A stretch of DNA of 64,000 nucleotides from Lachnospiraceae bacterium (GTDB lineage: Bacteria; Bacillota; Clostridia; Lachnospirales; Lachnospiraceae). Positions within the stretch are counted from its first letter, which is position 1. Each line of letters starts with the position of its first letter. The position numbers and the translations under genes are program-made. Positions 7,331 to 44,282 of the stretch are shown one piece after another. The notes under the pieces are model-generated. The model made no database searches. It had not been told where the DNA came from and saw only the letters and a program-made list of their open reading frames with translations. The stretch spans positions 18,442 through 82,441 of the forward strand of contig JAILRI010000219.1 of the NCBI GenBank assembly GCA_024698555.1, in the 5' to 3' direction.

Positions 7331-7359
7331 TTGATATTTATCTGTTTTTGTGCTATAAT
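7331..7359 (+). promoter_or_regulatory. sigma-70/SigA-type promoter of the signalling operon
   Basis: TTGATA (7331-7336), 17-nt spacer, TATAAT (7354-7359), about 90 nt upstream of the ATG at 7449. Confidence 0.55.
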
Positions 7360-9971: not shown

Positions 9972-10002
9972 AAACTGTGTTTCAATATCATGATAAATAT
10001 TT

Positions 10003-12237
10003 ATGAAGGTCAACCGGATGAAAAAGATTAAAGCATGTGTAAACAGGATCAGGGATTATATTTATGATTCTTCCATCAACATAAAGGAGAGGACCTTTAT
10101 ACTGTTCTCGATCGTTGTATTGGTGGCTTTGTTTGCTGCCATACCTGCCGGTCTTATTATGAGGGAGCCGATCATGGCCACGATATTTACAGTGGTCGGA
10201 ACTGCCTTCTTTTCGGCATATGTATATCTGGCTTTCAAAAAAGACCATATATCTCGTGCCAGGATCGTCATATCGATCATTCTGATCTTTGTTTTTCTCC
10301 CCGCGATGTTCTTTACCAACGGAGGAGTTGAAGGTGGCACGCCTATATGGCTCCTTCTTGGAACGATCTATATTTCGCTCATACTCGAAGGCAGGCTTAA
10401 GGTCATCATGCTGATCAGTGAAGCTGTGGTGCTGATCGCATGCTGGATCATCGGGTACTGCTTTCCTGAATTGATCACCCAATATTCAAGGGAAGGTAAC
10501 TATTTTGATACGATCGCGGGATTGTTTATTGTCAGCGGCATAATCTTTGGCATCATTTCCTTCCAGAACAGGCTGTACAGACGGGAAGAGGAGCAGAAGA
10601 ATGTTCAGAGACTGTTCGCGCAGACGGCTACCGCGCTGGTAAATGCTATCGATGCCAAAGATAAATACACACACGGACATTCGGCCAGAGTCGCGGAATA
10701 CTCCCGGAAAATAGCAGAGTGGGCAGCCAAGACACCTTCCGAATGTGAGGAGATCTATTACGTCGCGCTTCTCCATGATGTAGGGAAGATAGGTATTCCG
10801 GAAGCGATCATCAACAAAGAGGGCAAACTTACCGATGAAGAGTTCTCGATCATAAAGCAGCATTCTTTTCTGGGTGCACAGATACTTCAGAGTATTACCG
10901 AGTATCCTTATCTGAGCATCGGAGCGCATTTTCATCATGAGCGGTATGACGGCAGAGGTTATCCCAACAGGCTTAAAGGTACAGATATTCCCGAGATAGC
11001 CAGAATTATATCCGTGGCAGACGCTTATGATGCCATGACCTCGAAGAGGAGCTACCGCGATCCCATTCCGCAGGAGAAGGTACGCGAACAGTTCATAGAG
11101 GGCGCAGGAACGCAGTTTGATCCCGAATTTGCCAATATCATGCTGCATCTGATAGATCTTGATACCGAATATGAAATGAAAGAACGGGGCGAAAGCAGTG
11201 AATTTGCGGGACAGGAGGAGCTGATCATCGGAGAGCACAGAGACGGTGTATCGGAAGGGATCCTGCTTACTCCCAATATGACTGTTGTCAGATTGAAGGT
11301 CGGAGTTGATAAAAATGCCGCCGGGCATACTCCAAAGCCTTCAATTATCATGTTTGATTCTCTTGACGGCCGCTTCCATGATGATGAGAAGGAAATAAAG
11401 GATCTTCTCTATGATGAGTATGCGGAAATATGGCTTGAGGGGCGGGTAACTAATTCCTCAGTCAGAAAGACAGAGATCAAGACCTTCGGAAAGACTGCCT
11501 CAGCCATGGCGCCGGGTGAATACCGTATAGAAGCTGTCAAACGCAGGGATCACGCTCTTGTCAGGATAGAAAGCCGTGACAAGACCGTAGAGATAATCAT
11601 GGCGCTTCCCGACAGCAGCAGGTATGTATATATGGGACTTACGGGCGAACATTGCCGCTTCAGCGATCTAAAGATCGAAAAGTCGGAAGATGCCGTTCCG
11701 GAGGACTATATACCCAGGATCGCAAAGGAGATCAGTTATATTGACGCTCCGGAAGGCGACATTCCCAATGTTCAGGTAGACGGATACCGTACAGCTTCTA
11801 CAAAGGGCATACCGATCACGGACGGGATGAAGATCACTTTCCATACCTTGAGCCTTCCTACGGCAAGGCTTGTCTGGCATTGCCCTTCATATGTTGTATT
11901 TTCGGCCGATGACGGTATTGTAAGTGGTGAGGACTACAAAGAATTCTCTCTGGTGAGACTTGACGGCGAGACCTGGGAGGGTGAGAACCTTGCCGAAAAT
12001 GAGCTTATTGTTGACAGACAGCATTTCGACGGGTGGGACGCATGGAAAAAACTGAATCTGCAGGGTTATGATGTTTCCGTATCCTTCAGCAGGGACGGAA
12101 ACCGTATCGTTTCAACCACCGACAACGGCGGCGTTTCCATCAGGAATATTACCACTGTCAAGGTTGATACAGGGGAGATCTATGTGGCACTTTCAGGAGA
12201 TCAGTGCGCTCTGACGAATATCAGGATCAGTAAATGA
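10003..12237 (+). CDS. Membrane HD-GYP phosphodiesterase with an uncharacterised duplicated C-terminal module
   Basis: 744 aa with a multi-TM N-terminus. HD-GYP motifs HGHSARVAEYS, LLHDVGKIGIP, HHERYDGRGYP. The C-terminal ~330 aa consists of two ~143-aa repeats. Confidence 0.85.
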   Translation: MKVNRMKKIKACVNRIRDYIYDSSINIKERTFILFSIVVLVALFAAIPAGLIMREPIMATIFTVVGTAFFSAYVYLAFKKDHISRARIVISIILIFVFLPAMFFTNGGVEGGTPIWLLLGTIYISLILEGRLKVIMLISEAVVLIACWIIGYCFPELITQYSREGNYFDTIAGLFIVSGIIFGIISFQNRLYRREEEQKNVQRLFAQTATALVNAIDAKDKYTHGHSARVAEYSRKIAEWAAKTPSECEEIYYVALLHDVGKIGIPEAIINKEGKLTDEEFSIIKQHSFLGAQILQSITEYPYLSIGAHFHHERYDGRGYPNRLKGTDIPEIARIISVADAYDAMTSKRSYRDPIPQEKVREQFIEGAGTQFDPEFANIMLHLIDLDTEYEMKERGESSEFAGQEELIIGEHRDGVSEGILLTPNMTVVRLKVGVDKNAAGHTPKPSIIMFDSLDGRFHDDEKEIKDLLYDEYAEIWLEGRVTNSSVRKTEIKTFGKTASAMAPGEYRIEAVKRRDHALVRIESRDKTVEIIMALPDSSRYVYMGLTGEHCRFSDLKIEKSEDAVPEDYIPRIAKEISYIDAPEGDIPNVQVDGYRTASTKGIPITDGMKITFHTLSLPTARLVWHCPSYVVFSADDGIVSGEDYKEFSLVRLDGETWEGENLAENELIVDRQHFDGWDAWKKLNLQGYDVSVSFSRDGNRIVSTTDNGGVSIRNITTVKVDTGEIYVALSGDQCALTNIRISK

Positions 12238-12263
12238 GTTGATTAAGGAGATTTTCGATTGGT

Positions 12264-13028
12264 ATGTCGATAAGAAGAATGATCTTTACAGCTGAAAAAG
12301 AGTCTTTTATCGTCCGCGTTCTTGTTAAAAAAATGCAGGATGCGGGTGTGGACTGTATTTATGCCTCGTTGCGGGTCGACGATCTCAACTCATCATGGAT
12401 GGGGGAAGATCAGCTGATCGCTCTTTTTCTGGAAGATGACTTGATCCCGAGGGAAGATGCTCTTCATTTTATTATCGATAAACTGGAGGAAAGAGGCGGA
12501 CACCTGATCCTTGTCGGAGCTCGTGAGGATTTAAAGATCATGTGTACCCATGTGCCGACAGATCTGATATATAAGAGTTTTGCCAGACCGGTGGATAATG
12601 CCATGTTCATCAGTGAAGTGGTTGAGTATTACAAAAAACTTGATTCGGGAGAACTGAAGAAGAGCATATTGATAGTTGATGATGATTCCCAGTATCTGAC
12701 ATTGATCAGACAGTGGCTCGTGGATTCATACAAGGTGTATCTGGCATCATCCGGACTCCAGGCCATAAAGCTGCTCGGAAAAACAAAAGTCGATCTGATA
12801 CTGCTTGACCACGAGATGCCGGTCACCAGCGGTCCGCAGGTCCTTGAAATGCTGCGCAGCGAGGAAGAAACGAAATCCATACCGGTCATGTTTCTCACCG
12901 GGAAGAGCGACAAAGAAAGTGTGATGGCAGTAGTTTCACTTCACCCCGAAGGCTACCTTCTCAAGAGTATTAAGAAAGAGAAACTGCTTGAGGAACTGAA
13001 AAATTATTTTGCGCTCCATAATGAGTGA
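12264..13028 (+). CDS. Stand-alone response regulator: N-terminal pseudo-receiver-like region plus canonical REC, no output domain
   Basis: 254 aa. The C-terminal half has ILIVDDD, LILLDHEMP (phospho-acceptor Asp), MFLTGKSD and YLLKS. The N-terminal ~125 aa has an alternating beta/alpha pattern but no acidic pocket. Confidence 0.8.
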   Translation: MSIRRMIFTAEKESFIVRVLVKKMQDAGVDCIYASLRVDDLNSSWMGEDQLIALFLEDDLIPREDALHFIIDKLEERGGHLILVGAREDLKIMCTHVPTDLIYKSFARPVDNAMFISEVVEYYKKLDSGELKKSILIVDDDSQYLTLIRQWLVDSYKVYLASSGLQAIKLLGKTKVDLILLDHEMPVTSGPQVLEMLRSEEETKSIPVMFLTGKSDKESVMAVVSLHPEGYLLKSIKKEKLLEELKNYFALHNE

Positions 13029-13046
13029 TAACAGGAGATCGCTTAT

Positions 13047-15248
13047 ATGAACCGAAGTTTTAAACAGAACAAAAACAGTATATTCCACCCTGCGGTGTTA
13101 TTGCTTATGGTGGTTTCTGCTCTGCTGAATATTCTGCTGTCCATGATAGTGAGGACAACAGAATTGCCTTTCTATATCGATACTGTCGGAACTATAGTCG
13201 CTACCGCCTTAGGCGGTGCCGCACCGGGCATCGTGACCGCATTTGCCACCAATACGGTCAACTTTTTTTTAGACGGCGAGTCCATATTCTATGCGCCGTT
13301 AAATATGCTGATAGCAATTCTTTCGGTAGCGTATTTCGGGGAATACTCGGCTTACAGAAAAAAACTTAAAGAACAGAATAAGAACTATAAAAAGGATTAC
13401 GGGCAGAAATCACTGCTTGATCTGATCCTTTTTATTCTGGCACTTGCCTTGATCGGCGGAGGGATTGGAGCTCAGATAACCTGGTATTTGTATGCCTCAC
13501 CGTCAGAAACTCCTATGATCGTAAATATCAGCAACTGGCTGTCCGACAGTTTTGGGATCGGTATCTGGGGCTGCCATATGATATCAACATATATTACCGA
13601 TGTGATGGATAAAGCCATATCGGTATGTCTGGCACTTCTTATCATTAAACTGGTTCCCGACAGTTTAAGGGAAAAAATCCGGTTTACCTCGTGGAGGCAG
13701 AAACCGATATCCTTTGAGGAACAAAAAGCCGCAAAAGCGAAATTTAAAGGACGTGTCTCTATAGGGACCAGGATCAATATCATACTCATTCTTTCCACTC
13801 TGCTCATGATGTTCACCGCTCTTGTTTTCAGCGCCATGACCTTCCGCCAGAATACGATCGAATCATTATCGAAATCTGCGACCCAGATAGCCTATCTTGC
13901 CTCGAAAGAGATCGATCCGAAGATGGTAGATGTGTTTCTCGAAAAGGGAAATAAAGTGGCAGAATACGCCACAGTCAAGGCAAGACTCAGGGTTATCAAA
14001 AACAGTTCACCCGATATCGCTTTTCTTTATGTATACAGGATAGAAGAAGACGGATGCCATGTGGTCTTTGACCTGGATACTGTTCTGAGTGACTCCACCT
14101 TTGTGGAGGGGGATCCGCCCGGAAGAGTGGTTCCGTTCGAAGAAGCATATCTCCCTTATATTGATGATCTGCTTGCGGGAAAGATGCTTCCGGCCGTACA
14201 GATGAAGGACAGGTACGGGAGTTTTCTTGCCTCGTACTATCCCGTTTACGACAGAGAAGGCAACTGCGTCTGCTATGCTGTATCAAATGTAGAATACAGA
14301 TTGGCCGGGAATCTGATGTACAGGTTCATCGGAAGACTTTTACTGCTATTTACCGGATTCTTTATCCTGATAGTCGCGATCAGCCTGATAACGACCAGAT
14401 ACCGTATAGTGATGCCTATCATGAGTATGACGGTTCATGCCAATGAAATGACTGATGAGAAGGGTGGAGCTGATGAGGAAAGTCTTAAAAAGATAGAGGA
14501 ACTTGATATCCGAACCGGAGATGAGATTGAAGGGCTGTACAGGGCTCTTGAAAAACTGACAGGTGACACGGTTTACCAGCTGAGTGATAACAGGAACAAG
14601 GCTGAGGCGATATCGAAGATGCAGAGTGCCCTGATCGTAACCATGGCAGATATGGTTGAAAGCAGGGATTCGGATACTGGAGCCCATGTTTTAAAGACAG
14701 CTGCTTATGTCAGGATCATACTTCAGGGACTTAAACGGAACGGTTATTATTCCGAGAAGATAACCGACAAGTATTTAAGAGATGTTGAGATGAGCGCGCC
14801 TCTTCACGATGTCGGCAAGATAAACATACCGGACGCGATCCTTAATAAACCCGGGAAGCTGACAAAGGAAGAATTTGAGATCATGAAGACCCATACGACA
14901 GCCGGAAGGTCACTGCTTGAAAACGCGATCAGCTCCATGGAAGGTGATAACTACCTTAAGGAGGCCAGAAACATGGCCGCCTATCATCATGAGAGATGGG
15001 ATGGCAAAGGATATCCAGAAGGACTGCATGGCGAGGTCATTCCTCTATCCGCGAGAGTCATGGCGGTTGCGGATGTTTTTGACGCTCTTTCCTCTCCCAG
15101 GGTTTATAAACCCGCGTTTCCTTTTGATGAGGCAGTCAAAATGATAGAAGAAGGCTCCGGAACACAGTTTGATCCCAAGTGCGTGGAGGTATTTCTCGAA
15201 TCCCTTACGGAAGTTAAGAAGATACTTAAGAGGTATCAGGAAGCATGA
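13047..15248 (+). CDS. Membrane HD-GYP phosphodiesterase with an extracytoplasmic Cache-like sensor region
   Basis: 733 aa with several N-terminal TM helices. A ~170-aa loop lies between two TM helices and looks Cache-like by position and composition. Then GAHVLKTAAYV, PLHDVGKINIP, HHERWDGKGYP. RBS AGGAG. Confidence 0.85.
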   Translation: MNRSFKQNKNSIFHPAVLLLMVVSALLNILLSMIVRTTELPFYIDTVGTIVATALGGAAPGIVTAFATNTVNFFLDGESIFYAPLNMLIAILSVAYFGEYSAYRKKLKEQNKNYKKDYGQKSLLDLILFILALALIGGGIGAQITWYLYASPSETPMIVNISNWLSDSFGIGIWGCHMISTYITDVMDKAISVCLALLIIKLVPDSLREKIRFTSWRQKPISFEEQKAAKAKFKGRVSIGTRINIILILSTLLMMFTALVFSAMTFRQNTIESLSKSATQIAYLASKEIDPKMVDVFLEKGNKVAEYATVKARLRVIKNSSPDIAFLYVYRIEEDGCHVVFDLDTVLSDSTFVEGDPPGRVVPFEEAYLPYIDDLLAGKMLPAVQMKDRYGSFLASYYPVYDREGNCVCYAVSNVEYRLAGNLMYRFIGRLLLLFTGFFILIVAISLITTRYRIVMPIMSMTVHANEMTDEKGGADEESLKKIEELDIRTGDEIEGLYRALEKLTGDTVYQLSDNRNKAEAISKMQSALIVTMADMVESRDSDTGAHVLKTAAYVRIILQGLKRNGYYSEKITDKYLRDVEMSAPLHDVGKINIPDAILNKPGKLTKEEFEIMKTHTTAGRSLLENAISSMEGDNYLKEARNMAAYHHERWDGKGYPEGLHGEVIPLSARVMAVADVFDALSSPRVYKPAFPFDEAVKMIEEGSGTQFDPKCVEVFLESLTEVKKILKRYQEA

Positions 15249-18200
15249 TGAAAAGAAACCCTATTAGGATTGGTATTGCTGTTCTTTTTCTTGCTGTGAT
15301 AACGGCAGGAATTATTTGGAATGTACGGACATTTGGGGCGGAGAAAGAGACGTATACCGTCAATGCCAACGGATATCCCGTAGGTGGCGGATATGCCGCC
15401 AGTAACCAGATACCCGGGGCATATTTTCTGCCTGTATTATATGATGCCTCAAATGGGCTTCCGACTTCGGAAGCGAACTGCATACTTGCCGCAAGTGACG
15501 GATATATCTGGATAGGCGGATACAGCGGTATTGTCAAGTATGACGGGCTGAATTTCGAAAAAATGTCTGTAACTGACGGTCTTACCAGCGGAAGAGATTT
15601 GTTTGAGGACCGGGACGGCCGTATTTGGGTTGCGACCAATGATCACGGTGTAGTAGTGATAGACGGCGCAGATCGTGTTAAGTTTACTAAAGACAATGGG
15701 ATGAATTCCAACTCTATACGTACTTTTGCCCAGGATGCGGACGGCAACGTCTTCATAGGTTCGACAGCAGGCGTTTCGTATGTAGACGTATCTATGAAAC
15801 TGCATAATATTGACGATAACAGATTAAATAATGCGAGGATCCTGCGGCTGGTATCGGACGAAGAAGGAACCGTTTACGGACATACAGGGGACGGAAACGT
15901 ATTTACCGTTTCGACGGACGGAGTCGGTGCGTTTTACAGGAGCAGCGACTTGGGAATGAAAAAAGTAACAACCATACTTCCGGATCCGGAACATGCGGGA
16001 ATGCTGTTCTTCGGAACTATAGGCCACAGTGTCTACTATGGTTCTTTATCGGAGAACGCCGCTAATATGAAAAGGATAGATACGGCTCCCGCTCAAAACA
16101 TACACTGGATGCATTATGCCTGCGGACGTTTATGGGTTTCTTCGGTAAGCGTTGCGGGATATGTTGATGAATACGACAGGTTCATCCCTTTTGAGAGTTT
16201 ACCTGTAAAAGACTCTTTTGAAATGATGACTTCGGACTATCAGGGCAATATGTGGTTTGCTTCTTCCAGGTATGGCGTCATGAAGCTGGCTGCGAACAAT
16301 TTTCTGGATATTACCGGAGCTGCAGGGTTAGATCCTGAAGTGATCAATGCTACCGCATTCAGGGAGGGGAATCTCTATATTGGTACTGATTCGGGCTTAA
16401 GGATCATTGATGAGGATTATCGCATCAGAGAAAATTATGTAACCGAATATTTCGGTGAGTCCAGGATCCGCTGCATCATGAACGACAGCAGGGGTAACAC
16501 TTGGTTCTCCACATTTACCGGAGGTCTTGGCCTGGTGTGTCTGACGGTTAACGGCAAACTGATAAATTATACATATAACAACGGCCTTCCTTCCAATGAG
16601 ATCAGGTGTACCTGCGAGATGAAGGATGGCACTTTGGTGGTCGGAACCAACGCCGGGATCGCGCTGCTGAAGAACGGACGCGTGACTGAAACCTACGGTT
16701 TCTCCAGTGGTATGAAAAACACCGTTGTTCTTACCGTGTGTGAGGGGGAAGGCGGAGAGATCCTCGCAGGCACAGACGGAGACGGAATATATGGGATCAA
16801 AAATGGTATTCTGCGCCATATCGGGATAGAGGACGGACTTGACAGTGATGTGATCATGCGCCTGAAAAAAGATGATTATAACGGCGTTGTATGGGTTATA
16901 ACATCAAGTATGGTGGAATACATAAGAAACGGTGTCGTGACCAAAGTAACCGCATTCCCTTATAACAATAATTTTGATGTGATACCCGCTGATAACGGAA
17001 AGCTCTGGTTTCTGTCATCACGCGGGATATACGTGATGAGCGCGGCGGATGTGTTAAACGATCAAATAACGGAATACATTCTGTTTGAAAAAGTCAACGG
17101 GCTTACAAGCATGCCTGTATCACATTGCTATAACGGAACGGATGACAGCGGATATCTCTATATTGCCGGACAGACAGGGGTTTCCGTGATCAATACAAAT
17201 AATCTGTATGATTTTTCGAGCAGTATCATCACCGGCGTGAGGAGCATTTATTATGACGGAGTTGAAATACTGCCGGATGAAAGCGGCGTATACAATCTGC
17301 CATCCGCATACGGACGTATGCAGATCAATCCCGCGATCCTTGATTATACACTGTCAAATCCGCTTGTCAGGGTCTGCCTTGAGGGAATGAATGATGAGGG
17401 CATTACAGCTCATCAGAGCAGTCTGGCGTCTCTTGAATATACCGGTCTGAAATATGGGGATTATTCCCTTCATATCCGGGTCCTTGACGAAAACAACGGA
17501 AGAATACTCTCTGACAGCCTATATCATATAAGAAAAGCTCCCGCTTTCTTCGAAAGGATGTCTGTCAGGATCATTTTGATGATCCTTGCTCTTGCCGCTA
17601 TAGGTATAGCGGTATGGCGTGTTCTTACCGGTACTGTCATCAGAAAACAGTATCTCCAGATACGGGAAGCAAGAGATGAAGCTGACAGGGCAAATGCTGC
17701 CAAATCCAGATTCCTTGCGAATATGAGCCATGAGATCCGTACTCCGATCAATACGATCATGGGTATGGATGAAATGATACTGCGTGAGAATACCCAAAAC
17801 GTGTCTCGTGAATATTCAAGTGCGGTCACCGGTTACGCCCGCAATATCAAGTACGCTTCCGAATCATTACTGGGTCTGATCAATGACCTTCTGGACATTT
17901 CCAAGATAGAGTCGGGCAGCATGCATCTGGTAGAACAGGAATATGATACCGCAGAACTGCTTCGAGGTGTCATTTTCATGATACGGGACCGGGCGGAAGA
18001 GAAGAAGCTGTATTTTGACCTCGATATTGATGAAACGCTTCCTAAACGGCTCTACGGTGATGGGGGCAAGGTTAAGCAGATAATCCTGAATATTCTGACT
18101 AACGCAGTAAAATACACGGATGAAGGTGGTTTTACCCTTAGCGTGAAGGTAATTGACAGGAATGAAACGAGCGCAGCCTTAAGGATCTCAGTCAGGGACA

Positions 18201-19501
18201 CCGGCATAGGGATAAAGCCGGAAGAGATCGATAAGCTGTTTTCCGCTTATGCGAGGCTGGACGAGGTCAGAAATTCAAATATAGAGGGAACCGGTCTGGG
18301 ACTAGACATTTCAAAGCAGTTCACCGATATGATGGGCGGCAGACTTTGGTGTGAGAGTGTGTACGGAGAGGGCAGCGAGTTTCTTCTTGAGATCAGACAG
18401 AAGATTGCTGATGCTGCGAAAGTCGGAGTGTTCCACGAAAAGGTGGACGATTCGGCTGCAGGGAACTATAAACCGCAGTTTATAGCGCCTGATGCCGACA
18501 TACTCGTCGTAGATGATAACCCGATGAACCTGAATGTTATCAAGGGGCTGTTGGGACCGACGAAGATATTTGTAACTACTGCCTCAAGCGGTGAAGATTG
18601 TCTGGAAAAGATCGACGCTAACGACTTTAATGTAGTGCTGCTCGATCATATGATGCCCGGAATGGACGGGATAGAAACGTTGGAGAAGATCAGAAAAGAT
18701 CACCCGGATCTGCCGGTATACGCGCTTACGGCAAATGCTACCGCGGGCGGAGAAGCATTTTATCTGTCCAAAGGCTTCAACGGATATCTTACGAAGCCTA
18801 TTGATATCGTTGCGGTAGAGCACGCGATCATGAGGCATTTGCCCGAGCATATCATGCTAAAGCCTTCTGATGAAGACGCAGTACAAAATGACACGATCCT
18901 TGACGAGGATCTGCGCTGGCTGGAAAACGCCGAGGGGATAAGTGTCCCTGAGGGAATAGCGAACTGCGGCGGAGCTTCCCAGTTTGTTTCGCAGCTGAAG
19001 TATTTTGCAGACAATATTGATGACAATTCCGCTCTCATTGAGAAAGCCTATGAGGATGACGATATAAAGCTGGCTACTGTAAAGATCCATGCGTTGAAAA
19101 CTTCTTCAAGGATTATCGGAGCCCTAAAACTTGCGGATGAGTGCCGGGAGCTTGAGGAGGCCGGAAACAGTAAGGATACAGACTATATCAATACCCGCGC
19201 ATCGGCAGTGATTGAGCATTACAGGGAGTTTAAAACGATTCTGGGACGCTTAAAGAATGATAAGAAAGATATGGACGAAAGCGGGGACAAGCCGGAAATA
19301 ACAGCAGGGGAACTGGATGAGGCGTACCGGACCTTGAAGGACTGTATCATCCAGATGGATTATGACGCAGTTGAGACTGTTCTAACACAGCTTAAGAAGT
19401 ACAGGCTTCCCGGGAAGGATGAAGATACGCTAAAGGCTCTGGAAAAAGCCTTTGGTCAGGTTAACTGGGAAGCAATGGAAGAGGTGATCGGGAATGTATG
19501 A
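15245..19501 (+). CDS. Hybrid sensor histidine kinase: beta-propeller (Reg_prop repeats) plus Y_Y_Y sensor, TM, HisKA, HATPase, REC, Hpt
   Basis: 1418 aa. Start overlaps the upstream stop (ATGA). Repeated motifs of the type GLPSNEIRCTCEMKDGTLVVGTNAGIALL. Y_Y_Y-like LKYGDYSLHIRVLD. TM ILMILALAAIGIAVW. SHEIRTPINT, GTGLGL. REC LLDHMMPGMDG. Hpt KIHALKTSSRIIG. Confidence 0.9.
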   Translation: MMKRNPIRIGIAVLFLAVITAGIIWNVRTFGAEKETYTVNANGYPVGGGYAASNQIPGAYFLPVLYDASNGLPTSEANCILAASDGYIWIGGYSGIVKYDGLNFEKMSVTDGLTSGRDLFEDRDGRIWVATNDHGVVVIDGADRVKFTKDNGMNSNSIRTFAQDADGNVFIGSTAGVSYVDVSMKLHNIDDNRLNNARILRLVSDEEGTVYGHTGDGNVFTVSTDGVGAFYRSSDLGMKKVTTILPDPEHAGMLFFGTIGHSVYYGSLSENAANMKRIDTAPAQNIHWMHYACGRLWVSSVSVAGYVDEYDRFIPFESLPVKDSFEMMTSDYQGNMWFASSRYGVMKLAANNFLDITGAAGLDPEVINATAFREGNLYIGTDSGLRIIDEDYRIRENYVTEYFGESRIRCIMNDSRGNTWFSTFTGGLGLVCLTVNGKLINYTYNNGLPSNEIRCTCEMKDGTLVVGTNAGIALLKNGRVTETYGFSSGMKNTVVLTVCEGEGGEILAGTDGDGIYGIKNGILRHIGIEDGLDSDVIMRLKKDDYNGVVWVITSSMVEYIRNGVVTKVTAFPYNNNFDVIPADNGKLWFLSSRGIYVMSAADVLNDQITEYILFEKVNGLTSMPVSHCYNGTDDSGYLYIAGQTGVSVINTNNLYDFSSSIITGVRSIYYDGVEILPDESGVYNLPSAYGRMQINPAILDYTLSNPLVRVCLEGMNDEGITAHQSSLASLEYTGLKYGDYSLHIRVLDENNGRILSDSLYHIRKAPAFFERMSVRIILMILALAAIGIAVWRVLTGTVIRKQYLQIREARDEADRANAAKSRFLANMSHEIRTPINTIMGMDEMILRENTQNVSREYSSAVTGYARNIKYASESLLGLINDLLDISKIESGSMHLVEQEYDTAELLRGVIFMIRDRAEEKKLYFDLDIDETLPKRLYGDGGKVKQIILNILTNAVKYTDEGGFTLSVKVIDRNETSAALRISVRDTGIGIKPEEIDKLFSAYARLDEVRNSNIEGTGLGLDISKQFTDMMGGRLWCESVYGEGSEFLLEIRQKIADAAKVGVFHEKVDDSAAGNYKPQFIAPDADILVVDDNPMNLNVIKGLLGPTKIFVTTASSGEDCLEKIDANDFNVVLLDHMMPGMDGIETLEKIRKDHPDLPVYALTANATAGGEAFYLSKGFNGYLTKPIDIVAVEHAIMRHLPEHIMLKPSDEDAVQNDTILDEDLRWLENAEGISVPEGIANCGGASQFVSQLKYFADNIDDNSALIEKAYEDDDIKLATVKIHALKTSSRIIGALKLADECRELEEAGNSKDTDYINTRASAVIEHYREFKTILGRLKNDKKDMDESGDKPEITAGELDEAYRTLKDCIIQMDYDAVETVLTQLKKYRLPGKDEDTLKALEKAFGQVNWEAMEEVIGNV

Positions 19502-21899
19502 TTTGATAAAGACTTATCAGATGGATATCATGCTCGGACTGTCAAGCATCTGTGTCGCTGTCGGTTTTTTTGCCCTGATCACGAAGTCCCTGCCCAGAAA
19601 AAGAAAGCTCGCCATGATCGACCTGGAGTTCTCGGCAAGCATACTGCTGTTCTCAGACAGGATAGCGTATATTTTCCACGGTGATCCGACTGTAATGGGT
19701 TACTGGATGGTCAGGATATCGAATTTTCTGGTGTTTTTTATGACGATTTCCGTCATGCATGCTTTCAATCTGTATATTTGCGACCTGTGCAGTAATGAGA
19801 TCGGTCTGAAGACTGTGCCGTTTAGGCTGAGGCTCGTAGAGCTCGTGGCCGGAGCAGGGTGGATACTGGTCATTATTTCACAGTTCACGGGTTTATATTA
19901 CTATTTTGATGAAAGCAACGCTTATCAAAGGGGCCCCGGATTTCTGATATGCTATATCATTCCGTTTGTCGGGACATTTATACAGTTGTCCGTGATCATA
20001 CAGTATTTTAAGCGTTTGAGCCTGTATATCAGCATACCCATGCTTCTTTTTACGATCCTGCCGATCATTGCCTCCATATTTCAGGCGCTTCTTTACGGCG
20101 TTTCACTTACCAACATGTCCATCGTCGGATTGGGTATAGTCCTGTATATTTTCGCCATTATGGAAATGAATGATATGGTCGAGAAGATGCGGCGCAGCCA
20201 GTTGGATGAAGCTAACAGGAAAAGCCTGCATATAAGGCAGTCCTTCGAGCAGGTGGTAAAAGCGGTGGTCAAGGCTCTCGACTCACGTGACCGCTATACC
20301 CGTGGCCACTCTCTCAGGGTTGCGGAGTATTCCAAAGAGATCGCCCAGAGAATGGAACTCGATGAAAAGGAATGCTTCCGTGTATACTATTCCGCGGCGA
20401 TGCACGACATAGGAAAGATTGAGATTCCAGACAGGATACTTGCAAAACCGGGTCGTCTGACAGATATAGAAGAGGAAATATTGAAAAAACATCCGGCTAT
20501 CGGAGGAGCGATACTTGCCGAAGTGGAAAATGTTCCTTATCTGGCGACAGCCGCAAGATATCATCATGAAAGATATGACGGAAAAGGTTATCCGGAAGGA
20601 ACAGCAGGCGAAGATATCCCTCTGATAGGACGTATAGTAGCTGTAGCAAACGCTTACGATGAAATGACCTCTTTCAAATTTTCACATACTCCTTTTGCCC
20701 AGGGCAGGGTGCGTGAAACACTGGTGAATGGAGCCGGACACGAGTTTGATCCCGCGATAGTGAAGATCATGGTGGAAATGATAGATCATGACACCGACTA
20801 CATGATGAGAGAGTCGGAAGACGAGGAGATAGATGACGCGGACAGAAACGATATTACCATAGTAAACAGGATGCATTTTGAAAACTATAAGGAGCTGGTT
20901 TCAGACGGCATACGGGTACAGAAGGAGTTCTTAAAGGTCAGATTTGAAACCCGTCCGGATACCGGATATGACAGGAAAAACTCGATCCCGGCTATCGTAT
21001 TGTTTGATTCGTTTGACAGATGCGTCCACAGAAATGAAAGAAATATCAAGAACCTGCATTACTTTGAATACGGTGAGATCTGGATGGACGGGCATACGGT
21101 CACCACATCGGCAAGAGATATAAAGGCTTCCGTAACACAAAAGGTTTCTGCTGAAAATATTGATGAAAATGAATGGATCGCCTACGAGATCGAGGCTGTG
21201 AATATCAAGGATCATGTCAGGATCAAGATAAACAGCAAATATATGTTTGCGGATATTACCGTAGCGCTTCCCGACTCGACCAGATATGTCTTTTTTGGTC
21301 TGACCGGAGAGCACTGCACGATCAAGGACATTTCCGTTAAGGAGATCGCTCTGGGCGCAGGTGATGACAATATTCCCCGGATAGTGCCTGAAGTCAGTTA
21401 TTTTACCCGTAAGGACGGGGATATCCCCAATGTCGAGGTAAATGGATACAGAGAAGAAGCAACTCTTGGGATTCCGGTTGATGACGGTATGAGACTGTTT
21501 TTCAGGACTCAGAGCCTGCCGGTGGCCAGCCTGGTACAGCACTGCGCTTATATACTGCTGTACTCTTCCGATGACGGAACCGTAAACGGGAAAAATTATA
21601 CGGAATACGTATGTATCCGTACGGACGGTGATGAGGCTACCATAGACGGGAAGGCAAAGAATAAATTCAATATACATAAGGCCGGGGATTTTTCAGGCTG
21701 GGACGCCTGGAAAGAGAAAAACAAAAAGGGGCTTGACTACGAGATCGTATTTAAACGCAGAAAAAATAATATTACATTCAAAACCGAAAATGCAGGGATT
21801 TCTATCGAATGCGCAACGACAGTACCTAAAGGCGCTGACAATGTTTACGTGGCGCTTACCGGCAACCTGTGTACTCTGATGGATATCAGGGTTAGGTAG
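19494..21899 (+). CDS. 7TM HD-GYP phosphodiesterase with the same duplicated C-terminal module as 10003..12237
   Basis: 801 aa. Start overlaps the upstream gene by 8 nt. RGHSLRVAEYS, AMHDIGKIEIP, HHERYDGKGYP. The C-terminal repeats end in GLTGEHCTIKDISV and ALTGNLCTLMDIRV. Confidence 0.85.
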   Translation: MYDLIKTYQMDIMLGLSSICVAVGFFALITKSLPRKRKLAMIDLEFSASILLFSDRIAYIFHGDPTVMGYWMVRISNFLVFFMTISVMHAFNLYICDLCSNEIGLKTVPFRLRLVELVAGAGWILVIISQFTGLYYYFDESNAYQRGPGFLICYIIPFVGTFIQLSVIIQYFKRLSLYISIPMLLFTILPIIASIFQALLYGVSLTNMSIVGLGIVLYIFAIMEMNDMVEKMRRSQLDEANRKSLHIRQSFEQVVKAVVKALDSRDRYTRGHSLRVAEYSKEIAQRMELDEKECFRVYYSAAMHDIGKIEIPDRILAKPGRLTDIEEEILKKHPAIGGAILAEVENVPYLATAARYHHERYDGKGYPEGTAGEDIPLIGRIVAVANAYDEMTSFKFSHTPFAQGRVRETLVNGAGHEFDPAIVKIMVEMIDHDTDYMMRESEDEEIDDADRNDITIVNRMHFENYKELVSDGIRVQKEFLKVRFETRPDTGYDRKNSIPAIVLFDSFDRCVHRNERNIKNLHYFEYGEIWMDGHTVTTSARDIKASVTQKVSAENIDENEWIAYEIEAVNIKDHVRIKINSKYMFADITVALPDSTRYVFFGLTGEHCTIKDISVKEIALGAGDDNIPRIVPEVSYFTRKDGDIPNVEVNGYREEATLGIPVDDGMRLFFRTQSLPVASLVQHCAYILLYSSDDGTVNGKNYTEYVCIRTDGDEATIDGKAKNKFNIHKAGDFSGWDAWKEKNKKGLDYEIVFKRRKNNITFKTENAGISIECATTVPKGADNVYVALTGNLCTLMDIRVR

Positions 21900-21909
21900 G
21901 AGATGATTA

Positions 21910-23850
21910 ATGGCAATTAAACGCATAACTGATAAATATCTGGCAGATTTCTTCGGAATTGATGACAGTGAACAGGGACAGGCTGAACTGGCCGATATCA
22001 GAAAGAAGCTGGTCAGACAGCAGTACGAGAACGGAACTGATGTCTGTGTTATTGACGAAGAACCTGACGGGATGTTTTTCCTGGAAACAGGGACGGCTAT
22101 AGTACTGGGGCGTGAGGGAGAACAGCTCAATATCCTGCACGAAGGACAGTATTTCGGTGAATATGGCGTCCTTTCCGGCAACAAGAGGCTGTCAACCGTG
22201 CGTTCGTTGGGAAGGACCATAGTCTTCAAGCTGGAAAGCGATGACATGATGGAAATACTTTCGCGTCATCCCGAAATCTACGGAAAACTGATGAAAAGGG
22301 TTTATGGGCAGGTGTCGCGTAAACATTCCCAGATATTGGAACTGTCAGGTTTACGTAAGGGAATACTCCAGCACCCAAGAAACGAAACGCCGATGTCAAA
22401 GGGACAGATGGCGGTTCAGTACGGGATCCTGGCGCTTGTTTACCTTGCTGCATACTTTATTCCGCTTCCGGGCGGGAGTTTTCCTGTATTTTTATTTCCG
22501 CTGGGTCTGATGCTGGTTTATGTCGTTCTTACCAAAAGAACGCTGGAATCTCTGGTGGCTTCGATCATACTGGCGGCTGTACTGCTGTACAAAGAGGGGG
22601 TATCAGCCGGCTTCGTGGACGCGGTAATGGACACCATGGAGCTGGAGGATAATGTTTTTACCGTACTGGTGATGGCACTTATGGGCGGAATGATCCAGCT
22701 GATCACTGCGTCCGGCGCTATTACGGCCTTTAAGAAAATGGTCGATAAAAAGATACACGGTCAAAATGAAACCATGCTCGCGGCCTGCGGTATTATGACC
22801 GCCACATGCATTGATGACGGATTAAATATGTCCTGCGCGGCTCTGGCCACCAACTCTTCCGCGAAGGAGCATATGATACCGAGGGAGAAGCTGGCGCTTA
22901 TATACAGCCTTCTTCCGACGGCTCTGTGCTCATTTATGCCTTTGTCGCTGTGGGGGATCTTTGTTATAGGTACGCTGACTGCAACCGTGAGAGCTCAGGA
23001 CATCCAGCTTTTTTGCAGGTCGATACCCTTCAATTTTTTCTCTATCCTGACTGTGGCAGCGATACTGATGCTTTGTTTTGGCAGACTCCCTCTGAGCAGG
23101 AAGCTTAAACACGCGGATGCCAGGGTAGAAAGCGGAGGGACCTTATGGCCTGCCGGATCCGAGAAATACTTAAACGTACTTGAACCTGAGATGTGGGGAA
23201 AAATATACAATATCATGCTGCCGATACTGGTACTGGCGATATCCTCGCTGGCGGTACGTTCGATCCTGGCCGGCAGATTTATTGTAGACAGTGCCTGCGG
23301 GCTGGTTGTGACACTGCTGTTTATGTTTTTGCTTTACTGCGCCCAGGGGCTTATGACCCCGGAACAGTTTATGGAGCATCTGGTCACAGGCATTGCCAAC
23401 ACCACGCTGCCTATAATAATGTACCTGCTTACCATCTGCTTTGCAAATCTTCTGGACGCGCTCTCTCTTGAAAATTATTTTCTTGGTATCGTGGAACATG
23501 TACGCGGATTTGGATTTATGCTTCCGGCATTCATTTTCATCACATCCATGCTGCTTACGGTCGTTCTCGGTTCTTCGTGGTCAATGTATGCTATCGTGTT
23601 TCCCATAGCCATACATATGGCAGGCGGTCTGGGGATCGATCTGGCTTTGTGCGTGGGCGCGGTATGCGGCGCGGGCATAGCCGGTGAATACAACTGTATG
23701 TTTACGGTAAACGCGCTGGATGTGGGTACTGTTATAGGATGTGATCCGGGAGCGGTACGCTCGGTAAGGATGACCTACAGTATCGCGCTTACTCTGATCA
23801 CTGCGTTGTTGTATCTGGCAGCGGGTGTGCTGGTTACGGTGCGCATGTGA
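21910..23850 (+). CDS. Cyclic-nucleotide-binding domain fused to an NhaC-family (Na+/H+ antiporter-like) membrane transporter
   Basis: 646 aa. The N-terminal ~140 aa resemble a CAP-effector domain (FFLETGTAIVL...GQYFGEYGVLSGNKRLSTVRS). About 11-12 TM helices follow, with an NhaC-like GSSWSMYAIVFPIA motif. RBS AGGAG. Confidence 0.8.
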   Translation: MAIKRITDKYLADFFGIDDSEQGQAELADIRKKLVRQQYENGTDVCVIDEEPDGMFFLETGTAIVLGREGEQLNILHEGQYFGEYGVLSGNKRLSTVRSLGRTIVFKLESDDMMEILSRHPEIYGKLMKRVYGQVSRKHSQILELSGLRKGILQHPRNETPMSKGQMAVQYGILALVYLAAYFIPLPGGSFPVFLFPLGLMLVYVVLTKRTLESLVASIILAAVLLYKEGVSAGFVDAVMDTMELEDNVFTVLVMALMGGMIQLITASGAITAFKKMVDKKIHGQNETMLAACGIMTATCIDDGLNMSCAALATNSSAKEHMIPREKLALIYSLLPTALCSFMPLSLWGIFVIGTLTATVRAQDIQLFCRSIPFNFFSILTVAAILMLCFGRLPLSRKLKHADARVESGGTLWPAGSEKYLNVLEPEMWGKIYNIMLPILVLAISSLAVRSILAGRFIVDSACGLVVTLLFMFLLYCAQGLMTPEQFMEHLVTGIANTTLPIIMYLLTICFANLLDALSLENYFLGIVEHVRGFGFMLPAFIFITSMLLTVVLGSSWSMYAIVFPIAIHMAGGLGIDLALCVGAVCGAGIAGEYNCMFTVNALDVGTVIGCDPGAVRSVRMTYSIALTLITALLYLAAGVLVTVRM

Positions 23851-23947
23851 TAAAAACAGCACTTTACATCTTGGATGATTTGTGTTATAACTACATCTGT
23901 TGTGCATATAACGCACAGAAATAATATGAAAGGCAGATTATTTGATC

Positions 23948-25012
23948 ATGAAGAAGATTATGGCTGCGGCACTTGTATTGTGCATGTGCATGGTACTTGC
24001 CGGATGCAGTAGCAAGGTTAATCTGGTAACAGGCTACAAAAAGGGTGACGTAACACTTGGACAGTATAAAGGGTTGACATACACGAAGACCTCGACTGAG
24101 ATCTCTGAAGAAGATGTTGAAAATGAAATACAGAGCAGGCTGGAAATGAATGCCGAGAGCGCGGATGTGACCGACAGGCCTGTTAAGACCGGAGATATCG
24201 TTAATATCGATTTTGTCGGCAAGGTTGACGGTGTGGAGTTTGATAACGGATCGGGAACGGATACTGATCTGGAGATCGGCTCGGGCAGGATGATACCCGG
24301 ATTTGAGGATGGGATCATAGGCATGAATAACGGTGATACAAAGGTCATAGATGTGACATTTCCCGATGAATATCCCAACAATCCTGATCTGGCAGGAGTG
24401 GCGGCAACCTTTGACATCACTGTAAACAGCATTACGGAAAAAGTGATCCCTTCACTGGAAGATTATGTTGCTACTAAAGACGAATATTCGTCGGCAGATG
24501 ATTTCCGCGCGGCTGTAAGGTCAGAACTGGAAACCGAAGCAGTTAAAAATGCCGATGATCAGAAATTCAACGACATAATCGAGAAGGCTGTAGGCAACTC
24601 CACCTTTAATACCGATATGACCGAGGCTATCTCGGCTATCAAGACGAATCTGTACAGCAACTACAATTCGATCGCAAGTGCCTATAATCTGGATGCGGCT
24701 ACATTGTTCAGCTATATGTACGGAATGAGCACTGAAGAGTTTGACGCTTACGTTGATGAACAGGCAAAATCCAGTGCCGAGTATAATTATCTGCTTTCAG
24801 CAGTAGTGGAGGCCGAGAAGATCAAGGCAACCGATAAGGAAGTAGAGGATTACGCACAGACCGTATTGTCCAGCTACGGAGTAGATACGACCGCTGCCCT
24901 GTACGAAATGATCAAGAATACTACAGGCAAAGACGGAAAACTCATGCTCACCGAGCAGGTCAAGCTCAACAAGGCAAGTGACTTGATCATTGACTCGGCG
25001 ATAGAAGAGTGA
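23948..25012 (+). CDS. Lipoprotein with a trigger-factor-like FKBP PPIase domain and C-terminal chaperone domain
   Basis: The ORF starts at TTG 23942, but ATG 23948 gives MKKIMAAALVLCMCMVLAGC (lipobox LAGC). TF-type PPIase motifs GDIVNIDFVGKVDG, IPGFEDGIIGM, FPDEYP. The ribosome-binding N-domain is absent. Confidence 0.75.
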   Translation: MKKIMAAALVLCMCMVLAGCSSKVNLVTGYKKGDVTLGQYKGLTYTKTSTEISEEDVENEIQSRLEMNAESADVTDRPVKTGDIVNIDFVGKVDGVEFDNGSGTDTDLEIGSGRMIPGFEDGIIGMNNGDTKVIDVTFPDEYPNNPDLAGVAATFDITVNSITEKVIPSLEDYVATKDEYSSADDFRAAVRSELETEAVKNADDQKFNDIIEKAVGNSTFNTDMTEAISAIKTNLYSNYNSIASAYNLDAATLFSYMYGMSTEEFDAYVDEQAKSSAEYNYLLSAVVEAEKIKATDKEVEDYAQTVLSSYGVDTTAALYEMIKNTTGKDGKLMLTEQVKLNKASDLIIDSAIEE

Positions 25013-25046: not shown

Positions 25047-25078
25047 ATAACCCGGTACAGATAAAAGTACCGGGTTAT
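25047..25078. terminator. Bidirectional intrinsic terminator between convergent genes
   Basis: Perfect 12-bp stem ATAACCCGGTAC / GTACCGGGTTAT with an 8-nt loop and AT-rich flanks. Confidence 0.6.
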
Positions 25079-40712: not shown

Positions 40713-41492
40713 ATGAATATCGAAATTGACGGCTACAATATTTGTTATAAGGTAACCGGTGAAGGTGATGAAACCGTGATCATGCTGCAGGGCTGGGGAA
40801 CGGATCTGGGAGTATACGATCCGGTCGCTGAGGCGATCAGTGATAAATACCGGTTCATTCAGTTTGATTTTCCCGGCTTTGGAGGAAGTGATGAGCCCCG
40901 TGAGGCATGGAACGTTGATGCCTACGCGGATTTTTTCTGCAGATTCGCCGAGGCTTTGCATATTGAGAGCGCAACCCTCATAGGCCACTCCTATGGCGGG
41001 CGCGTGATCATTAAGCTGGCGTCGCGGGAGAGTCTCCCTTTCAGGATCAATAATATTGTTCTGATCGACAGTGCCGGCATAGTTCCGAAAAAATCCTTCA
41101 TGCAAAAAGTTAAGATAAGAAGTTACAAGATACTTAAAAAACTGTTTGACCTTAAGCTTGTCTATGCCCTGTTTCCGGAACTGGTTGACGATTGGCGGAG
41201 CAGGCAGGGTTCAGCCGATTATCGTAACGCTTCTGAGATCATGCGAAAGTGTCTGGTTATGGCCGTTAATGAGGATCTGACTCACCTGTTGCCGCAGATA
41301 AAGCAGGATACACTGCTGATATGGGGAGATAAGGATACGGCGACACCCATTTCAGACGCCAAAACCATGGAAACACTGATACCCGGCTCGGGGCTTGTGG
41401 TGCTTGCAGGTGCCGGTCATTTTTCATTTTTGGAACAGCCTGCGGTTTTCAGGAATGTCATGAGATCATATTTTGGGATTGGAGCCGTGTAA
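40713..41492 (+). CDS. Alpha/beta-fold hydrolase
   Basis: 259 aa. Nucleophile elbow GHSYGG, C-terminal AGHFSF motif. Confidence 0.8.
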   Translation: MNIEIDGYNICYKVTGEGDETVIMLQGWGTDLGVYDPVAEAISDKYRFIQFDFPGFGGSDEPREAWNVDAYADFFCRFAEALHIESATLIGHSYGGRVIIKLASRESLPFRINNIVLIDSAGIVPKKSFMQKVKIRSYKILKKLFDLKLVYALFPELVDDWRSRQGSADYRNASEIMRKCLVMAVNEDLTHLLPQIKQDTLLIWGDKDTATPISDAKTMETLIPGSGLVVLAGAGHFSFLEQPAVFRNVMRSYFGIGAV

Positions 41493-43072: not shown

Positions 43073-43100
43073 AACATGATTTAATTTGGAGGAGCAAAAA

Positions 43101-44282
43101 GTGAAGACAAGGGTTGCGATGCTGTTCGGAGGCAAGAGCGTTGAACATGAGGTGTCCGTGATCACGGGCATTCAGGCTCTGCTGAGCATGGATACCGACA
43201 AATACGATGTGATACCGGTATATATGACCAAGAGCAATGATATGTATGTCGGTGATGATATAGGTAAGATCGAGTCATATAAGGACATAGACGGTCTTCT
43301 TAAAAGATCCCAAAGGGTCATCATGGTAAATGAAAAGGATCAGGTGCGTCTTGTGGCGTATCCTCCGAAGAAGCTGGGCAGGAATCCTGAGATAGACATT
43401 GATGTGGCTTTTCCGGCCGTTCACGGCACCAATGTTGAGGACGGGGCCCTTCAGGGATATCTTAAGACCATAGGCATACCCTTTGTCGGATGTGATGTGA
43501 CTGCATCGGCAGTGGGCATGGACAAGTACATCATGAAAATGATACTGAAGGAAGCCGGTGTTCCGGTACTGGATGCCAAAGCGTACACACTGTCGGATTA
43601 TGCGGAAATGGACATTATGCTGGCAGGAATTGAGAAAACTTTCGGATATCCTGTGATCATCAAACCGGTCAACTTAGGCTCGAGTGTCGGCATAAGCGTT
43701 GCCAGATCAAAGGCCGAGCTGGCATCCTCTATAGACGAAGCTTTCAGGTATGCGACAAAAGTACTGGTTGAACATGCGATCACGAATCTGAGGGAGATCA
43801 ACTGTTCAGTCCTGGGCGACGAAAACGAAGCTGAAGCTTCCGAATGTGAAGAACCACTGCATACCAAAGACATCTTAAGCTATGAGGATAAATATGTGAA
43901 AAACTCGAAAGGCGGAGGTTCAAAGGGAATGGCCAGCGTTTCCAGAAAGATTCCCGCCGATCTGACTCCCGAAAAAAGGGAAGAAGTGAGAGCACTGGCG
44001 GTAAGATCGTTTAAAGCTCTCGGGTGCAACGGCGTTTCAAGGATCGATTTCATGATCGATGATGATGATGGCAAACTGTATTTTAACGAGATAAATACCA
44101 TACCGGGATCGCTTGCGTTTTATCTGTGGGAGCCTCTCGGAGTGTCCTATAAAGAACTGCTTGACCGGATGATCAGACTGAGTCTGAAGAGAGTGCGTAC
44201 GGAACAGAATCTGACATTTACATTTGACACCAATATCCTGAACTCCGCCAGTTTTGGAGGAAGTAAGGGAGGAAAGCTGTAA
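43101..44282 (+). CDS. ddl: D-alanine--D-alanine ligase (ATP-grasp)
   Basis: ORF 43086..44282. GTG 43101 lies 6 nt after GGAGGAG. MKTRVAMLFGGKSVEHEVS, SYEDKY, NEINTIPG motifs. Confidence 0.88.
   Translation: MKTRVAMLFGGKSVEHEVSVITGIQALLSMDTDKYDVIPVYMTKSNDMYVGDDIGKIESYKDIDGLLKRSQRVIMVNEKDQVRLVAYPPKKLGRNPEIDIDVAFPAVHGTNVEDGALQGYLKTIGIPFVGCDVTASAVGMDKYIMKMILKEAGVPVLDAKAYTLSDYAEMDIMLAGIEKTFGYPVIIKPVNLGSSVGISVARSKAELASSIDEAFRYATKVLVEHAITNLREINCSVLGDENEAEASECEEPLHTKDILSYEDKYVKNSKGGGSKGMASVSRKIPADLTPEKREEVRALAVRSFKALGCNGVSRIDFMIDDDDGKLYFNEINTIPGSLAFYLWEPLGVSYKELLDRMIRLSLKRVRTEQNLTFTFDTNILNSASFGGSKGGKL

Follow-up and report, generated by a model that had tools for sequence, protein, structure and literature searches.

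What signal, if any, does a bacterial transporter read when it carries a cyclic-nucleotide-binding (CNB) domain at its N-terminus and is encoded directly behind an HD-GYP gene, i.e. one for a putative phosphodiesterase of cyclic di-GMP (c-di-GMP)? The question is raised by a 64,000 nt stretch of a Lachnospiraceae contig (the window hereafter), within which positions 21910 to 23850 of the forward strand encode a single protein combining a CNB domain with a permease of the NhaC superfamily. An earlier note, made from the nucleotide sequence alone, had presented this protein as a candidate effector of an HD-GYP operon. The reading favoured herein, with moderate confidence and on the strength of sequence comparison, is that it would be a secondary transporter of elevator-type fold, allosterically controlled at its N-terminal CNB domain by a 3′,5′-cyclic mononucleotide, most likely cAMP; control by cGMP is considered less likely than control by cAMP.

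A conserved fusion of a nucleotide-binding domain and a transporter

The gene and its parts are arranged as follows, with coordinates given for the window and AF2 denoting AlphaFold2.

21910..23850, + strand: CNB-NhaC fusion gene, complete, 646 aa with an ATG start (intact open reading frame, Pfam cut-offs exceeded for both domains, homologues spanning the full length)
21895..21902, + strand: ribosome-binding site GGTAGGAG, GGAG-type, 7 nt from the ATG, where it overlaps with the stop codon of HD-GYP3, the gene upstream (read from the sequence)
21967..22314, + strand: cyclic-nucleotide-binding domain, approximately residues 20-135 (PF00027 at 48.6 bits; sequence and fold matches; AF2 beta-roll plus helices)
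22153..22206, + strand: phosphate-binding cassette FGEYGVLSGNKRLSTVRS, residues 82-99 (conservation across 90 sequences)
22270..22395, + strand: residues 121-162, comprising the C-helix and the linker that leads into the first membrane helix (conserved in 90 sequences; AF2 confidence low)
22396..23847, + strand: membrane transport domain, a distant member of the NhaC / ion-transporter superfamily (PF03553; Foldseek)

The description of a CNB domain joined to a permease within one reading frame is borne out, as the single 646 aa frame is intact, with approximately 12-13 membrane segments or hairpins beyond residue 163 according to hydropathy and the AF2 model. The latter, built on 22 homologues and with a mean pLDDT of 78.9, displays a beta-roll and helices, after which the membrane domain is entirely helical. 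That an assembly or frameshift error has run a CRP-like gene and a permease gene together, a risk which the earlier note itself had raised, is so improbable that it can be set aside. Nothing was found in its favour, although unfused permease paralogues (P0130 and P0133) do occur; against it stand more than 120 independent clusters at 90 % identity, drawn from different assemblies and sources within a search space of 5.8 billion proteins, which share a common architecture of 638-665 aa at 96-100 % query coverage, as well as 90 full-length loci of the same architecture with a highly conserved linker. Every one of these clusters contains cNMP_binding, and all but P0088 also contain PF03553 in the precomputed Pfam column.

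The clusters share 53-72 % identity with the window protein and stem mostly from Lachnospiraceae, Acetatifactor and other rumen and gut Clostridia metagenome-assembled genomes (MAGs), with one distant family member coming from a Treponema MAG. When representatives at 50 % identity are searched exhaustively with HMMER, around eight further full-length fusion clusters are added, at 28-54 % identity (27-53 % in a later alignment), along with unfused paralogues of 450-500 aa that are at most 38 % identical to the fusion. Whilst an exact database look-up of the window protein itself returned no record, the fusion family is real and conserved, and is present in public databases under a generic name (NCBI labels it simply as ‘cyclic nucleotide-binding domain-containing protein’), yet it is uncharacterised.

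The N-terminal region had been read as a CAP-effector-type domain, and it passes the corresponding profile comfortably, with cNMP_binding (PF00027) matching residues 37-120 at an E-value of 8e-13 and 48.6 bits against a cut-off of 27.5. Sequence matches in the PDB include CNG channels, SthK, MlotiK1 and PKA-R, whilst Foldseek retrieves CNGA1-A4, SthK, Mtb CRP, PKA RI-alpha and MlotiK1; AF2 secondary structure and these fold matches together display the eight-stranded beta-roll flanked by helices that typifies CNB domains. The canonical phosphate-binding cassette has been defined previously, and its phosphate-binding Arg co-evolves with a Gly of the beta2-beta3 loop (Kannan 2007, PMC2246266). 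Both residues are fixed in the fusion family. Across the 90 full-length family members, taken from genome and metagenome loci, F82, G83, E84, Y85, R93, T96, V97, R98 and the beta2-beta3 loop G61 are invariant, such that the FGE motif and cassette Arg pointed out previously (in the motif GEYGVLSGNKRLSTVRS, residues 83-99) are not only present but unvarying. Of these residues, G83, E84 and R93 are those expected to contact the cyclic nucleotide. In this alignment no other segment of the protein is as conserved as the cassette, which has a mean column identity of 0.88 for residues 82-99, compared with 0.67 for the membrane domain and 0.56 for the N-terminal helices.

The cassette nevertheless departs from the canonical form in having Tyr85 after the Glu, and Leu94 and Ser95 after the Arg (R-L-S rather than R-[STA]-A). 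The latter deviation had already been remarked upon, and it proves to be fixed across the family; judged from the alignment, R-L-S and the Tyr after Glu are signatures of the family and not signs of degeneration. A Leu after the Arg fits cAMP better than cGMP, as cGMP-selective domains have Thr or Ser at this position. Amongst the distant fusion clusters (27-36 % identity) the Arg is mostly kept, with one harbouring a textbook RSATV, but it is lost in two, being Thr in P0123 and Cys in P0132. No conserved PilZ RxxxR or DxSxxG motif, or I-site RxxD, was seen in the N-terminal 165 residues upon inspection of the alignments by eye, with no pattern search performed.

Such departures might also suggest that the domain binds no nucleotide, and serves instead as a dimerization or autoinhibitory module, or as a sensor of another small molecule in the manner of CooA, FNR, PrfA or CprK. 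The CNB fold is indeed a generic sensor scaffold (Kannan 2007, PMC2246266), the R-L-S and G-E-Y deviations are unusual, the Arg has disappeared from the two distant clusters above, and most loci lack a nearby cyclase. Families that abandon cyclic mononucleotides, however, normally lose the FGE and the Arg, whilst here both are invariant in 90/90 members and lie within the most conserved segment; furthermore, an adenylate cyclase cluster and standalone CNB proteins of canonical type recur beside the gene (see below). With the invariant FGE...R cassette speaking against it, a role without nucleotide is deemed unlikely.

For the C-terminal part, the earlier designation of an NhaC-type permease holds at the level of the superfamily, but not beyond. 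Na_H_antiporter (PF03553) matches residues 344-640 over the full profile length, at an E-value of 5e-13 and 49.4 bits against a cut-off of 23, whereas the NhaC equivalog model TIGR00931 (cut-off 370 bits) produces no match at E ≤ 0.01; the sole match in the same equivalog search is a weak one to Tet(35), at 17.7 bits. Unfused relatives behave likewise in this test, scoring 21-49 bits. Foldseek aligns the membrane part with the TRAP transporter SiaQM (TM-score ~0.5), the MleN model 9a59, VcINDY and NaCT. The predicted structure is therefore that of an elevator-type fold of the ion-transporter superfamily, and by sequence the permease is only a distant member of the NhaC superfamily rather than an NhaC equivalog. 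Since TIGR00931 is not matched, Na+/H+ antiport cannot be assumed. Substrates handled within the superfamily include Na+/H+, malate/lactate, arginine/ornithine and possibly other solutes, and that of the fusion could be Na+/H+, or an organic acid or amino acid coupled to Na+/H+. Genes surrounding the transporter in the various loci (FeoB, ABC importers, GH13, an RCK channel and an SSF transporter) are inconsistent, and none points to a substrate.

Between the two domains lies a segment (residues 121-162) at the very end of which the unfused paralogues begin. Within it K138, H139, L145 and G151 are invariant, and P156 is retained in 89/90 sequences. That so conserved a linker is poorly modelled by AF2 is perhaps as one would expect for a coupling element whose conformation depends upon ligand or oligomer state. 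A plausible sequence of events would begin with nucleotide seated in the cassette, R93 holding the cyclic phosphate and E84 the ribose 2′-OH. Binding would shift the B and C helices, as in PKA, HCN and MlotiK1, and the shift would be transmitted through the linker to the first membrane helix, with the result that a brake on the transport cycle may be either released or imposed.

Candidate signals in related neighbourhoods

The source of a putative ligand was sought in gene neighbourhoods, using a comparative set of 102 related loci (L001-L102) plus the window, with open reading frames screened by phmmer and locally built hidden Markov models, and key genes assigned by Pfam. Counts cover the window and L001-L099, where the 90 full-length targets represent 48 lineages at 85 % identity; L100-L102 lie outside this screen.

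In 7/48 lineages a gene encoding CHASE2 together with a class III cyclase domain (Guanylate_cyc) is found within 5 kb of the target. Its companions recur as well, the clusters containing a metallo-beta-lactamase-fold protein (Lactamase_B_2), a FecR-domain protein, the cyclase and an NHL/SLH surface protein. The transporter is the last gene of the cluster in L007, L008, L036, L059, L066 and L073, and the first in L022, whilst in L018 and L062 the cluster is divergent from the transporter and has a GAF-HD-GYP gene added. Three examples, each a recurrent cyclase cluster, are:

L007, 42-6422: transporter as the last gene
L022, 6304-13083: transporter as the first gene
L018, 1-7764: cluster divergent from the transporter

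From its gene content, this cluster looks like an uncharacterised cell-surface-sensing cAMP module, of which the metallo-beta-lactamase-fold protein could be the phosphodiesterase. The FecR-domain protein additionally carries a Listeria-Bacteroides repeat. When aligned with CyaC, CyaB and Cya2, the cyclase displays Lys in DKFVGD and Thr in DYTAIGD, the corresponding Cya2 residues being DEF and YGVVG; we take the Lys/Thr pair to be the class IIIb adenylate-cyclase pattern, and Cya2 to be a guanylate cyclase. The linkage to the CHASE2 cyclase, persisting as it does through reshuffling, is the strongest functional signal found; one would expect cyclases of this class to be rare in these genomes, a presumption rather than a background count. 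In several relatives the signal could accordingly arise from the membrane CHASE2 adenylate cyclase of the same cluster, and, on gene linkage, cAMP made by that neighbouring enzyme is the likely signal for the family, rather than the products of the HD-GYP enzymes that adjoin the gene in the window.

In L022 and L098 the target is flanked by standalone CNB proteins whose cassette is the textbook FGEMALID..RSATVRT, together with an RCK-domain protein, and in L073 likewise by a standalone CNB protein. The RCK-domain protein of L022 is 419 aa long and Slo-like/TrkA_N. The stretches concerned, in which the standalone proteins are 166-169 aa long, are:

L022, 2331-4087, - strand
L098, 1240-1926, - strand
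L073, 5143-5649, + strand

Amongst nucleotide-responsive systems, Pycsar, with its cCMP/cUMP effectors, was also considered, PycTIR being a weak PDB match of the N-terminal part. It was ruled out in that the linked cyclase is a CHASE2 membrane enzyme of adenylate type, and no defence-system genes were seen in the Pfam annotations of neighbouring genes (the PADLOC library was not searched).

Genes of c-di-GMP turnover recur near the target as well. A GGDEF, EAL or HD-GYP gene occurs within 1 kb of it in 11/48 lineages, and at least five different layouts can be told apart: a co-directional HD-GYP gene (window), a divergent GGDEF-EAL gene (L010-13), a HAMP-GGDEF gene immediately upstream (L029/30/37/52/69), a TPR-GGDEF gene (L038), and GAF-HD-GYP with GGDEF (L018). 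A sixth is found in L102. In terms of density this amounts to 12 such genes per 87 kb within 1 kb of the target, against 6 per 521 kb beyond; as the 1 kb cut-off was picked after seeing the data and lineages are not independent, the enrichment is only suggestive. The HAMP-GGDEF proteins are membrane proteins of ~490 aa belonging to one clade, encoded immediately upstream of, and co-directionally with, the transporter, and they have no RxxD I-site:

L029, 655-2118
L030, 8487-9968
L037, 3121-4521
L069, 717-2216

In L102 (10067-11862), whose target is 33 % identical, an EAL-only gene lies 132 nt downstream of the transporter and is followed by a RelA_SpoT small alarmone synthetase, whilst before the transporter gene come those for a nucleoside hydrolase and a histidine phosphatase.

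These neighbours raise the prospect that the CNB domain senses the nucleotide of adjacent HD-GYP, GGDEF or EAL enzymes (c-di-GMP or, for example, cGAMP), making the transporter an effector of the c-di-GMP pathway. Aside from their recurrence and density, it speaks for this that the GGDEF and NDTYGH motifs of the GGDEF proteins nearby are intact, that the HD-GYP proteins of the window are likewise intact, and that Xanthomonas Clp and Burkholderia Bcam1349, both of the CRP family, reportedly bind c-di-GMP. However, in Clp the dinucleotide is said to have been modelled outside of the classical cassette, so that it would set no precedent for this pocket, and the invariant FGE...R cassette with its beta2-beta3 Gly is a signature of mononucleotide binding. 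In the alignment, the ligand-binding residues do not change with the clade, whether it is linked to the cyclase or to GGDEF; the cassette is the same in every context class, and therefore the whole family presumably shares one ligand, whilst only the link to an adenylate cyclase withstands the shuffling of gene order. Beyond the post hoc cut-off, several lineages share one ancestral arrangement, and the genomes are themselves rich in c-di-GMP genes, at ~1 per 87 kb in the flanks. Sensing of the neighbours’ dinucleotide is consequently regarded as improbable. A more specific version, in which the FGEY..RLSTVRS cassette has been retuned to c-di-GMP or to another GGDEF or HD-GYP product, which would make the protein a secondary transporter gated by a cyclic dinucleotide, with the HD-GYP / two-component cluster of the window acting as a dedicated signal-removal arm, appears doubtful also, and is given a low probability.

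With respect to HD-GYP genes in particular, how often the fusion stands beside one had been put forward as a check, and the answer does not favour a general association. Across the 48 lineages an HD-GYP gene directly adjoins the target in the window only; elsewhere, a GAF-HD-GYP gene occurs at a distance of 0.6-0.9 kb in two lineages, as part of cyclase clusters, the remaining lineages have none close by, and the first nine species-representative loci have none within 10 kb of the target. A conserved HD-GYP operon is thus ruled out. The portrayal of the protein as effector of such an operon is weak: proximity to c-di-GMP genes is suggested by the 11 lineages above, but adjacency to HD-GYP is confined to the window and the cyclase link is the stronger.

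Control by cAMP, as favoured herein, has several observations to contend with. No second-messenger gene is nearby in 32/48 lineages, and no cyclase was found in the 64 kb window. As c-di-GMP genes adjoin the target in the 11 lineages and in L102, a pure cAMP model needs cross-talk. Given the non-canonical cassette (G-E-Y and R-L-S), ligand preference could differ, and AF2 confidence is low for cassette residues 85-93 and linker residues 131-160. The recurrent c-di-GMP neighbours would most simply reflect pathway cross-talk, by analogy with other systems in which the two messengers meet, and we read the HD-GYP neighbours in the window in the same way, as possible cross-talk with c-di-GMP signalling and as no evidence on the ligand.

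The gene neighbourhood in the window

Within the window the target is situated towards the end of a string of signalling genes:

7331..7359, + strand: best promoter-like site, ahead of the histidine kinase (HK) / HD-GYP / receiver (REC) string into the target (11/12 consensus, extended TG; consensus match only)
7449..19501, + strand: upstream co-directional signalling genes, namely hybrid HK1, HD-GYP1, REC, HD-GYP2 and hybrid HK2
10003-12237, + strand: HD-GYP1 (HD...HHE...GYP motifs intact)
13047-15248, + strand: HD-GYP2 (HD...HHE...GYP motifs intact)
19494..21899, + strand: HD-GYP3, 801 aa, directly upstream of the target (HD_5 at 115 bits; HD, HHE and GYP motifs intact)
23942..25012, + strand: trigger-factor-like peptidyl-prolyl isomerase (PPIase) gene, last of the unit (FKBP_C and Trigger_C; TIGR00115 at 217 bits)
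25047..25078, no strand assigned: strong bidirectional terminator-like hairpin with a 12 bp stem, the only strong terminator
40713..44282, + strand: abhydrolase / Mur-ligase / Ddl trio (76 %, 63 % and 79 % identity to genes following target orthologues elsewhere)

The three phosphodiesterases previously placed upstream of the transporter are accounted for by these HD-GYP genes, which share its strand and have intact motifs. The same cannot be said for the notion that the transporter is the last gene of its operon, as the trigger-factor-like gene follows and the terminator is located only beyond that. Only 10 nt separate the HD-GYP3 stop codon from the target ATG, and no terminator-like hairpin is present either there or in the 91 nt between the target and the trigger-factor-like gene; because nothing of the kind separates these three genes, the target is probably co-transcribed, as the second-to-last gene, with the HD-GYP / kinase string. 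In this particular genome, then, the transporter has come to stand behind a two-component / HD-GYP cluster, and probable co-transcription with it could provide regulatory cross-talk with c-di-GMP. A tblastn search of the window for cyclase, GGDEF, EAL and PilZ genes matched only the three HD-GYP domains.

This juxtaposition is, by synteny, lineage-specific. Immediately after the target in the closest relatives (65-72 % identity) come genes for Vsr, an alpha/beta hydrolase, a protein of the Mur-ligase family, Ddl and an M15 peptidase, whilst in the window the orthologues of the hydrolase, Mur-ligase and Ddl genes so placed in other Lachnospiraceae are displaced ~17 kb downstream. As the usual downstream genes sit this much further on, the window neighbourhood is rearranged, and the order of genes implies an insertion or rearrangement covering positions ~23.9-40.7 kb of the window. 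The segment concerned harbours GH94, GH13, GH120 and Cys/Met-metabolism genes, along with one for a 437 aa HDOD-domain protein (an HD-related signalling domain) at 33719-35032 (+). Upstream synteny between an ABC pair of the window and the ABC genes of L010/L012 is not claimed, since their lengths differ (581/601 aa against 760-794 aa) and the resemblance may be one of generic ABC exporters.

Several of the neighbouring proteins have features of their own. HD-GYP2 begins with a multi-pass membrane domain, which resembles the CD3073-family ECF S-component and 5TMR-LYT at a sub-threshold level and would be an uncommon type of sensor on an HD-GYP protein. The hybrid histidine kinase at 15245-19501 (+), of 1418 aa, is encoded between two HD-GYP genes, the stop and start codons of adjoining genes overlapping, and consists of a Reg_prop/Y_Y_Y propeller, HisKA, HATPase, REC and Hpt without a DNA-binding output; propeller sensors of this kind are associated with Bacteroides hybrid two-component systems. 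Finally, the trigger-factor paralogue, at 356 aa, is almost wholly missing the ribosome-binding N domain.

Significance and comparison with known systems

CNB domains are the classic gates of ion channels, and, to our knowledge, SLC9C1 is the only secondary carrier on which such a domain is known in depth; we know of no characterised NhaC-family member with a nucleotide-binding domain, and of barely any description of cAMP signalling in gut and rumen Clostridia or in spirochaetes. Were the cAMP reading correct, it would place a bacterial carrier, of an unrelated elevator-type family, under direct cyclic-nucleotide control, and would offer a compact system in which to study the braking or release of an elevator transporter by a bound ligand. 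A further consequence would be a non-transcriptional output for cAMP in these Clostridia and spirochaetes, with the CHASE2-cyclase / FecR / NHL-SLH / metallo-beta-lactamase-fold cluster representing a testable pathway from input to output. The repeated company of GGDEF, EAL and HD-GYP genes further suggests a node at which cAMP and c-di-GMP meet.

The fusion is hence a candidate for the first bacterial cyclic-nucleotide-gated carrier, though not a categorically new type of protein. Predicted fusions of CNB domains to transporters have been described for an ATP:ADP antiporter in Arthrospira (PMC2853384) and for MscS-type and ABC-type proteins (Kannan 2007, PMC2246266); these are likewise bacterial and known from genome sequence only, but involve different transporter families, and a term search of both papers revealed no NhaC-type partner. 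Amongst 8.3 million full texts, none was found that connects a CNB domain to a permease of the NhaC type, in keeping with the remark in the earlier note that no characterised nucleotide-gated NhaC transporter was known to it.

With regard to pathway convergence, the cAMP-sensing EAL phosphodiesterase Bd1971 of Bdellovibrio (PMC6717892) similarly brings cAMP and c-di-GMP together via a CNB domain, a situation reminiscent of the GAF-HD-GYP genes inside cyclase clusters; its output, however, is an enzyme domain and not a transporter, and there is no homology beyond the CNB fold. The NhaC family (TC 2.A.35, comprising NhaC, MleN, Tet(35) and ArcD-type proteins) is related through PF03553, above cut-off, and through the fold match to MleN 9a59, whilst the lack of a TIGR00931 match, the weakness of that to Tet(35) and the identity of no more than 38 % to the nearest unfused relatives set the fusion apart. 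On the side of the sensor domain, MloK1 (MlotiK1) and SthK are the closest prokaryotic matches in CNB sequence and fold, and they too are membrane transport proteins, gated by cAMP/cGMP via a linker. They are tetrameric channels with a C-terminal CNB domain and a canonical R-[ST]-A cassette, whereas the window protein is a carrier whose CNB domain is N-terminal and has R-L-S.

The nearest functional analogue is SLC9C1 (sNHE), in which a secondary-active transporter carries a covalently attached CNB domain that modulates transport (PMC10620091). It differs in being a eukaryotic CPA1 carrier of NhaA fold, with a voltage-sensor domain and a C-terminal CNB domain, whereas the window protein is bacterial, has an elevator fold of the ion-transporter superfamily and an N-terminal CNB domain, and lacks a voltage sensor. 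The two transport domains are not homologous, and the likeness is therefore one of arrangement: a cyclic-nucleotide-binding domain attached to a secondary carrier.

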